The position numbers and the translations under genes were made by a program. A stretch of 64,000 bases of DNA from Gamaleyavirus AN24P2. The notes under the pieces were generated by a model. The model was not told where the DNA came from. It did no database searches and worked only from the letters and a program-made list of their open reading frames with translations. Shown piece after piece: positions 33,228 through 33,301 of the stretch (positions are counted from its first letter, which is position 1; each line of letters starts with the position of its first letter). The stretch is from sequence record OZ035810.1; one strand, given 5' to 3'.

Positions 33228-33301
33228 TGTCCACTACTGGATTTGAACCAGTGACTTTCCGATTATTAGTCGGTTGCTTTCCCCGTCTAAGCTAAGTGGA
33301 C
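33228..33301 (-). tRNA. tRNA with canonical cloverleaf and anticodon loop CUAAUAA (anticodon AAU)
   Basis: Hand-folded: 7-bp acceptor GTCCACT/AGTGGAC, 4-bp D stem GCTT/AAGC with GG in the D loop, anticodon stem ACCGA/TCGGA (4 bp plus terminal mismatch), T stem ACTGG/CCAGT with T loop TTCAAAT. Confidence 0.55.

Follow-up and report, generated by a model that had tools for sequence, protein, structure and literature searches.

An isoleucine tRNA with the anticodon AAU in the coliphage Gamaleyavirus AN24P2, a putative AUU reader on a tRNA-Ile2 scaffold

What can a phage isoleucine tRNA read when its wobble base is an adenosine, and does it take part in translation at all? The question is raised by Gamaleyavirus AN24P2, an N4/G7C-like coliphage of the Schitoviridae, of which a window of 64,000 nucleotides (nt) was analysed (sequence record OZ035810.1). 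The record OZ035740.1 of this phage, which has no annotation, matches the window with 100% identity and unchanged coordinates. At 33228–33301 on the minus strand, this window carries a 74-nt tRNA-Ile gene with the anticodon AAU. Bacteria normally decode isoleucine with GAU or with a lysidine-modified CAU, and tRNAs with an adenosine at position 34 (A34) are nearly absent from prokaryotes (bioRxiv 10.64898/2026.05.15.725136). The initial annotation, made from the sequence alone, had called AAU unusual for bacteria, and this view is supported. The gene is already known, being listed in databases and in one paper; it is a curiosity and not a new kind of system. The reading preferred here, held at an even balance of belief and doubt, is an accessory tRNA-Ile that would be specialised for AUU, keep A34 unmodified and be independent of TilS, the host enzyme for lysidine formation.

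The Rfam tRNA model RF00005 matched 33228–33301(−) over its full length (model positions 1–71) with 65.6 bits, above the curated gathering score of 29 and far beyond chance (E = 5e-12 in the 64-kb window). ARAGORN called a tRNA-Ile with anticodon aat at 33226–33301(−), one of two tRNA calls in the window, both on the minus strand; the second is located at 33308–33383. Read directly from G1 to the discriminator base A73, the 5′ part is GUCCACU-UA-GCUU-AGACGGGGA-AAGC-A-ACCGA-CUAAUAA-UCGGA, and the part following the anticodon arm is AAGUC-ACUGG-UUCAAAU-CCAGU-AGUGGAC-A. The acceptor stem GUCCACU/AGUGGAC is paired at all seven positions, the D stem GCUU/AAGC at four of four and the T stem ACUGG/CCAGU at five of five, with UUCAAAU as T loop. 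U8, A14, G18-G19, U33, A37, T54-T55-C56 and A58 are all found. The initial annotation had described this position and a clean cloverleaf with the same stems, the T loop TTCAAAT (correct as a minus-strand reading) and the loop CUAAUAA with U33, A37 and anticodon AAU. Direct reading, ARAGORN and Infernal agree with it. It had left out the strand and an A27·A43 mismatch at the top of the anticodon stem, the sole blemish of a cloverleaf with 7/4/5/5-bp stems and a 7-nt anticodon loop with U33 and a purine at position 37.

The anticodon loop CUAAUAA (C32 U33 A34 A35 U36 A37 A38) was located at 33263–33269 on the minus strand by sequence and Infernal alignment, with A34 at 33267, A35 at 33266 and U36 at 33265. 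Another placement of the anticodon, which the initial annotation had considered, is ruled out: ARAGORN, Infernal and the published tRNAscan-SE calls all arrive at AAU. The last are found in GenBank records of sister phages and in a paper that lists a tRNA-Ile(AAT) in a sister phage without remark on the anticodon (PMC11927229). Phages UE-S5b and UE-M6 have 100% identical copies annotated as tRNA-Ile, and the anticodon is named in the records of SP5M ('tRNA-Ile-AAT'), KKP 3715 ('tRNA-Ile(aat)') and Bp4 ('tRNA-lle(aat)'). A sequencing or assembly error was rejected, as AAU is present in 24 independent loci. An 8-bp acceptor register, underlying 79-nt ARAGORN calls in which U-1 pairs with A73 followed by C and CCA, was rejected because it is not kept in SP5M (ACCA), K57alpha1.2 (AUCCA) and the Bp4-type copies (no CCA). 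On the plus strand, the Rfam family 'Plastid-ycf2 5'UTR' matched 33227–33301 (38 bits) and 33310–33383 (17 bits) against a gathering score of 65.7; these matches were discarded as sub-threshold antisense images of the two tRNAs.

The sequence offers a likely origin for the unusual wobble base. Close relatives outside Gamaleyavirus all have the loop CUCAUAA, that is, C34 in an otherwise identical loop. They occur in the N4-like Enterobacter phage EcP1 (in an Asn-Pro-'Met' array), in Aeromonas T4-like phages, in Aeromonas phage Avpx2, in Vibrio phage RYC and in E. coli lambdoid prophages, where PGAP has named the genes tRNA-Ile; there they follow the Q antiterminator and adjoin a tRNA-Arg. In IMG/VR, the nearest tRNAs that share the anticodon arm have CAU (58 of 74 positions identical) or UAU (57 of 74), and no close GAU relative was present. 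Since CAU and UAU relatives tie and a close GAU is missing, the ancestor was probably an AUA reader with C or U as wobble base. The AAU tRNA thus appears to be a one-base wobble derivative of an AUA-reading tRNA-Ile2 scaffold. The tRNA-Ile2 genes (ileX/ileY and the prophage ileZ type), whose CAU is converted to lysidine by TilS and reads AUA, are its closest relatives with 77–81% identity. Both share the arm CCGACU-NAU-AAUCGG, the loop save position 34, A73, C4-G69 and a near-identical T arm. Unlike tRNA-Ile2, the AAU tRNA has with A34 no substrate for TilS and no CAU to be misread by MetRS, and its expected codon is AUU instead of AUA. The acceptor-stem determinants of E. coli TilS are the pairs 4:69 and 5:68, both C-G (PMC11947777). 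C4-G69 is retained, whereas pair 5:68 is A-U or G·U, and all 24 loci have A34 and not the C34 of CAU. The C13-G22 pair of the scaffold is replaced by U13-A22. The AAU tRNA is therefore a descendant of the lysidine-type tRNA-Ile2 family and not a member.

Charging by the host is compatible with the sequence. The identity elements of E. coli tRNA-Ile for isoleucyl-tRNA synthetase (IleRS) are defined (PMC9976931). The strong determinants A73, A35 and U36, together with A37 (the t6A site) and A38, are all present in the window copy, as are the minor pairs C4-G69, U12-A23 and C29-G41. The element 'G or lysidine at 34' is replaced by A34, whose acceptance by IleRS would agree, indirectly, with the harmless or favourable effect of an engineered Ile-tRNA(AAU) in E. 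coli.

The initial annotation had seen a need for deamination to inosine in any A34 tRNA, unless it decodes something non-standard or is a tRNA-derived regulatory RNA. The first two views are not supported, and nothing speaks directly for the third, which is unlikely. An orthogonal tRNA with the loop CU-AAU-AA, which is the loop of tRNA-Arg2 save the anticodon, carried no inosine in E. coli and decoded AUU with 4.5%, AUC with 0.43% and AUG with 0.27%, while AUA decoding was undetectable (PMC11066159). The same loop thus reads AUU about 10:1 over AUC without inosine, and nothing points to a non-standard decoding. The sites of E. coli TadA all have UACG in a stem-loop (PMC13170351). The phage tRNA has a 7-nt loop with UAAU in place of U33-A34-C35-G36. 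A phage-encoded deaminase was sought in three ways. A tblastn search with an approximate E. coli TadA sequence had a best E of 0.38. The zinc motif of the cytidine deaminase (CDA) fold (H/C-A-E ... PCxxC) was absent from all six frames of the whole 71-kb genome, comprising the window and the last 7.7 kb. Among the products of 38 minus-strand early and middle open reading frames (ORFs), Pfam detected a dUTPase-fold dCTP-deaminase-like protein and no CDA-fold deaminase. PHROG matches of ten late proteins were confined to structural and packaging families, and only the tblastn and motif scans apply to the remainder of the plus strand. These tblastn, motif and Pfam searches thus suggest that the phage encodes no TadA-like deaminase. 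An unmodified A34 is expected because no phage deaminase was found, UACG is lacking and the same loop escapes deamination in E. coli. According to a recent preprint, E. coli tolerates an engineered Ile-tRNA(AAU) without toxicity and with a slight benefit, a raised growth rate in some media (bioRxiv 10.64898/2026.05.15.725136).

A reader of AUU would meet a demand in the phage genome. In 57 long ORFs, isoleucine is encoded by 660 AUU (60%, 34 per 1000 codons), 302 AUC (28%) and 135 AUA (12%). The E. coli K-12 genes for ribosomal proteins, elongation factors and rpoA use 26% AUU, 74% AUC and 0.3% AUA, and neighbouring ordinary genes 51%, 40% and 9%. The preference for U over C at isoleucine, 0.69, is among the highest of the phage NNY codon pairs. 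The phage leans to AUU, a codon that is read by the host only via G·U wobble. AUA is unevenly distributed among the phage genes: it accounts for 1 of 157 isoleucine codons in the virion RNA polymerase gene at 21641–31999(+) and is absent from the capsid gene, and a tail-spike gene (13 AUA) and the gene for an 884-aa virion protein (15 AUA), at 5367–7670 and 16458–19112 on the plus strand, are richer. This unevenness suggests mosaic origins or differing expression constraints.

Taken together, the following pathway is proposed. A single change at position 34 of a tRNA-Ile2 scaffold would have created an AUU reader without need of host TilS. The tRNA would be transcribed from the minus strand within the tail of the early and middle genes, together with a tRNA-like partner, up to a terminator ending at 32949. 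Host RNase P and 3′ exonucleases may process the transcript, and the host CCA-adding enzyme would complete the 3′ end. Host IleRS probably charges the tRNA, as its determinants are kept in the sequence. A34 would stay unmodified and form a Watson-Crick pair with the U of AUU; judged from the same-loop experiments, it would read little AUC and essentially no AUA or AUG. The tRNA may thus top up the decoding of AUU, the commonest isoleucine codon of the phage.

Conservation was assessed on 24 loci with 15 distinct sequences from GenBank phages, IMG/VR and metagenomes. The phages in this set are only 5–10% diverged. A narrow pattern scan of IMG/VR matched only IME11, and broader patterns were used for locus collection; for the scanned loci, the search pattern left no room for variation in the T arm and the 3′ acceptor strand. 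AAU and all seven loop bases are invariant in the 24 loci. Twelve columns vary among the 15 sequences; they belong to the stems, the discriminator and the D and variable loops. The pair C29-G41 is changed to U-A in two distinct sequences (KKP3715; L021/L035) and U2-A71 to C-G in one. The pairs A5-U68, U2-A71 and G1-C72 pass through G·U. Standard pairs fill 94.9% of the stem cells, compared with 17–47% with partners slid. The isolates with a copy come from several continents and from different hosts; one is a Klebsiella phage. The pattern is as would be expected of a working tRNA, in a sample too shallow for proof.

Other viruses also have A34 isoleucine tRNAs on this scaffold. In IMG/VR, the 15-nt arm CCGACU-AAU-AAUCGG was located at 76 loci, 21 of which yielded ARAGORN tRNA-Ile(aat) calls. 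The same arm with GAT has 70 loci and 28 tRNA calls; with CAT, at least 120 loci and 112 tRNA calls in the first 120; and with TAT, at least 120 loci and 58 calls in the first 120. In viral contigs, this scaffold bears A34 about as often as G34. The 21 AAU calls belong to Gamaleyavirus and at least six unrelated lineages. In the contigs L160, L170 and L202, the AAU tRNA is part of arrays beside Ile(UAU), Arg(UCU), Trp and Thr; in L135, a 14-tRNA array holds it together with Ile(GAU). A34 isoleucine tRNAs recur in phages as a minor feature, and this speaks against a single accident. The lineages are represented by viral or prophage-like contigs: L160, L170 and L202; L135, assigned to a Pyrinomonadaceae metagenome-assembled genome; L079; L169/L184/L201; L164/L179/L218; and L162/L182/L195. 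In the lineage L160/L170/L202/L208/L209/L215, the tRNA is a 68-nt form whose D arm is reduced; AUA accounts for 28–64% of the isoleucine codons in the contigs of this lineage.

In the genome, the tRNA gene is located at the tail of the minus-strand block. Late genes for the terminase, tail proteins, the portal and the major head protein occupy the plus strand up to 32.0 kb, with the virion RNA polymerase (3,452 aa) at 21641–31999(+). Between 64 and 32 kb, the minus strand carries the early and middle genes, which encode an RNA polymerase, a DNA polymerase, helicases, a primase, a dCTP-deaminase-like protein, a ThyX-type protein and a member of the N4 gp49 family. The tRNA belongs to a 1.6-kb stretch at 33.3–34.9 kb that is devoid of credible ORFs. 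About 250 nt downstream of the tRNA, the terminator scan placed a strong intrinsic terminator at 32980–32949 on the minus strand, a 13-bp stem followed by TTTTTTATTT, which is kept in all sister loci. The transcription unit of the tRNA probably ends here. A scan for sigma-70-like promoters gave four sites, with 5.8 expected in shuffles, and hence no evidence of a promoter. Beyond the virion RNA polymerase gene, the convergent zone has a terminator-like hairpin at 32292–32312, called on both strands, and another at 32006–32028, called on the minus strand; inside the latter, a shorter hairpin of 5 bp was called on the plus strand at 32012–32024. Both agree with the change of strand that the GC-skew profile shows at about 32 kb.

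Only 6 nt upstream of the isoleucine tRNA ends a second element, tRNA-like 2 (33308–33383, minus). The short gap makes a dimeric precursor of the two probable. Rfam scored it as tRNA with 42.8 bits, leaving the anticodon arm unaligned; ARAGORN gave 'tRNA-???' with anticodon (ac), and tRNAscan-SE labels it Undet-NNN in relatives. Acceptor (U1-A72), D and T arms are good, CCA is encoded, and 3 nt separate the D stem from the anticodon stem. The anticodon arm is aberrant and folds either into a 5-bp stem with the 6-nt loop AAACCA or into a 4-bp stem with an 8-nt loop. Five of ten sister loci have the element, with a compensatory change of A6-U67 to G-C among them; the other five show a clean deletion. 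Further upstream, sequence and folding revealed a degenerate tRNA-like remnant at 33986–34053 on the minus strand. It comprises an 8-bp acceptor-like helix UUCCGGUG/CGCCGGAA followed by CCA, the T arm CUGGUUCGAGUCCAG and a hairpin with the loop GUGCACA, holding the Cys-like triplet GCA; a proper D arm is lacking, and Rfam did not detect it even at E<10. The T-arm-like hairpin GUAAGGUUCGAAUCCUUAC at 33906–33924 (minus) received no tRNA call from ARAGORN or Rfam and is a putative remnant of another tRNA gene. Under permissive settings, Rfam yielded no additional tRNA in the island. The relatives Bp4 (L014 419–497) and PBM-2 (L001 3302–3381) have an extra element, not present in the window, that is annotated as tRNA-Cys(ACA). 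It provides a second A34 anticodon in the island and has poor acceptor and anticodon stems; UGU makes up 70% of the cysteine codons of the phage. Two non-coding blocks flanking the tRNA pair, 33390–33506(−) and 33154–33212(−), are near-invariant among sister phages, the former with the hairpin GCCAGUUAAAGCCUGGC at 33400–33416. They could represent promoter or processing signals, a small RNA or the leader of ORF 32985–33161.

The locus is shared with an alternative element. A different middle is enclosed by the acceptor stem and T arm of the isoleucine tRNA in Bas96, pSb-1, HK2 and two contigs from metagenomes. This 85-nt form B is located at about 2445–2529 of L003 (Bas96), at 1499–1583 of L037 (pSb-1) and in L028 and L030. 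Its D arm is canonical, and a 4-bp stem CAGG/YCUG closes a 22-nt loop, AAAGCUUCGAGAGAACAAGGUG. Its middle is 91.5% identical to the 'tRNA-OTHER' of more than 100 Kuttervirus (Vi01-like) phages, and the core is also present in Salmonella phage SFP10 (L036 694–779) and in the 111-kb, T5-like Escherichia phage EP_H11. The Kuttervirus version has a different yet fully paired acceptor stem. Existing annotations of form B are only tRNA-OTHER or pseudo. Form B appears to be a conserved tRNA-like RNA that is unable to decode and is common to several phage families. Its conservation in more than 100 Kuttervirus phages with a compensated acceptor stem would indicate selection on a non-decoding RNA. RNAs unable to decode are maintained at this locus, which leaves room for a non-decoding role or for slow decay.

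Several observations weigh against an AUU-specialised accessory tRNA. Of about 103 phage records that have the surrounding 3 kb in common, only about 38–39 contain the 76-nt stretch at ≥90% identity, many with an annotation as tRNA-Ile; within the genus, the tRNA is hence accessory. The gene does not encode the 3′ CCA, as CCCAUU follows A73, and the 3′ trailer varies among copies. The A27·A43 mismatch is accompanied by variants in some loci: G73 in L024 and L032, a broken pair A1·C72 in the single sequence L033, and U15 in L021, L033 and L035, which breaks the 15-48 pair. The D-loop element G16/D20/D21 for IleRS is absent, as AGACGGGGA has A16, G20 and A21. The invariance of the seven loop columns on its own is not significant (p = 0.13), and the contrast between tRNA and flank was uninformative, the blocks 33390–33506 and 33154–33212 being equally conserved. 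Conservation hence does not single out the tRNA, the non-coding DNA at its flanks being conserved to about the same degree. The elements next to it are plainly aberrant tRNAs. In codon usage, the major capsid gene (13632–14834) has 12 AUU, 11 AUC and no AUA; with such a ratio, the most expressed gene is not tuned to a reader of AUU only. An ORF with 17 AUU and 1 AUC (12395–13615) was rejected as capsid gene, since PHROGs assigns the capsid to 13632–14834. The codon comparison between late phage genes and host that the initial annotation had proposed thus favours the tRNA for the phage as a whole, with 60% AUU against 26% in host genes of the ribosomal type, and fails for the late capsid gene. 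IMG/VR contigs with an AAU tRNA have no AUU excess after correction for G+C (residual −0.008, Mann-Whitney p = 0.81). Finally, transcription, processing, charging, modification state and codon reading of the AAU tRNA were all inferred from its sequence and from experiments with other tRNAs.

These observations would be explained if the gene were a neutral relic, a wobble-mutated tRNA-Ile2-type gene that survives, transcribed or silent, in an eroding tRNA island with no measurable role in translation. This is a possible, if doubtful, account. Besides an aberrant tRNA-like gene, the 1.6-kb island has an orphan T arm and a remnant that lacks the D arm, and the elements of the island come and go: tRNA-like 2 is deleted in half of the sister loci, and the isoleucine tRNA is absent from most relatives and replaced by another element in Bas96, pSb-1 and HK2. 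The mismatch, the variable trailer, the three kinds of base variants and the lack of a codon-usage association across phages all agree with decay. A score of 65.6 bits is, however, that of a healthy tRNA, and every base for tertiary interactions is intact. Two independent compensatory double substitutions and several G·U-preserving changes occurred in the stems and none in the anticodon loop. Persistence in isolates of several continents and hosts, the Klebsiella phage among them, and the recurrence of AAU tRNAs in unrelated phage tRNA arrays also speak against erosion. A role outside decoding is unlikely. The RNA would then act as a decoy or nuclease-resistant substitute against tRNA-targeting defences, as processing punctuation or as a source of regulatory fragments, and the anticodon would serve recognition by a protein and not codon reading. 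Phage tRNAs can evade or neutralise anticodon nucleases. One acceptor stem and T arm bears two middles, form A with AAU or form B with a 22-nt 'anticodon loop'; the Kuttervirus phages keep form B as if it were selected as a non-decoding RNA, and tRNA-like 2 has undergone a compensatory change despite an unusable anticodon loop. No defence system or tRNA-Ile-specific nuclease is implicated by the present findings, though, and an experimental lead is lacking. The AAU tRNA, in contrast to its neighbours, is canonical throughout and has IleRS determinants that a decoy would not need. A broader conjecture, with slightly less in its favour, is that lytic phages repeatedly turn the lysidine-dependent tRNA-Ile2 scaffold into A34 tRNAs, which nearly all cellular prokaryotes avoid, and that Gamaleyavirus uses one top half (acceptor and T arm) as a cassette with interchangeable middles, the AAU arm or the 22-nt loop; the products would be tRNA-shaped effectors selected for recognition by host proteins, for instance defence nucleases or modification enzymes, and not for codon supply, with A34 chosen as escaping it.

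Deamination of A34 by host TadA or another enzyme is the least probable alternative. An IAU anticodon would read AUU, AUC and AUA and replace the lysidine pathway. The scaffold descends from AUA readers, and AUA makes up 12% of the phage isoleucine codons, where ordinary host genes have 9% and highly expressed ones 0.3%. The loop positions 32, 33, 37 and 38 are the same as in tRNA-Arg2, some non-ACG A34 tRNAs (AUG; AAA by inference) are partly deaminated in E. coli (PMC11066159; bioRxiv 10.64898/2026.05.15.725136), and some viral contigs with an AAU tRNA are very rich in AUA (L202 64%, L209 55%). Against this stands the orthogonal tRNA with exactly the same loop and anticodon, which acquired no inosine and read no AUA in E. 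coli (PMC11066159). All confirmed TadA sites are UACG (PMC13170351), and a phage deaminase was not found by the searches described.

The AUU-specialised tRNA can be set against known systems. The cytoplasmic tRNA-Ile(AAU) of eukaryotes has the same genomic anticodon and amino acid, without sequence kinship. There, the heterodimer ADAT2/3 acts independently of sequence and converts A34, yielding IAU; E. coli has no such enzyme, and none was found in the phage. E. coli TadA, unlike ADAT2/3, is sequence-specific (PMC13170351, PMC11066159). The nearest functional parallels are engineered A34 tRNAs with the same anticodon in the same host, an Ile-tRNA(AAU) (Raval et al. 2026) and an orthogonal M. 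jannaschii tRNA(AAU) with the identical loop CUAAUAA (Schmitt, Biddle and Fisk 2024). They mature, are not toxic, stay unmodified and read AUU at about 10:1 (bioRxiv 10.64898/2026.05.15.725136; PMC11066159). These are laboratory constructs, whereas the AAU tRNA gene of the phage is natural and has become fixed in its lineage. Natural A34 tRNAs for amino acids other than arginine are rare exceptions, like the phage tRNA: four in Oenococcus oeni, two of them unmodified, and leucine tRNAs of Streptococcus (PMC11066159; bioRxiv 10.64898/2026.05.15.725136). The bacterial cases named here are Leu or Thr tRNAs for four-codon boxes in Firmicutes or Mollicutes. Mycoplasma tRNA-Thr(AGU) is another natural A34 tRNA. 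The phage tRNA differs from them by serving the AUN box, where misreading of AUG changes the amino acid, and by belonging to a phage of a gammaproteobacterium. Phage tRNAs generally compensate for codon usage and support translation as the host machinery decays. Like them, the AAU tRNA lies in an accessory island that varies among close relatives and matches a codon used more by the phage than by the host. Unlike them, it has an unusual wobble base, and most of its island neighbours are not usable decoders.

If the tRNA were inert, it would illustrate that annotation pipelines count decaying phage tRNAs as functional. The C34, U34, G34 and A34 variants of one scaffold in viral contigs may reveal how the exchange of one base shifts a phage tRNA between AUA and AUU decoding with no need of host TilS. 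Why prokaryotes avoid unmodified A34 is an open question that is now addressed with engineered E. coli strains. A natural A34 tRNA-Ile in easily grown lytic coliphages would be the matching natural experiment in the same host.

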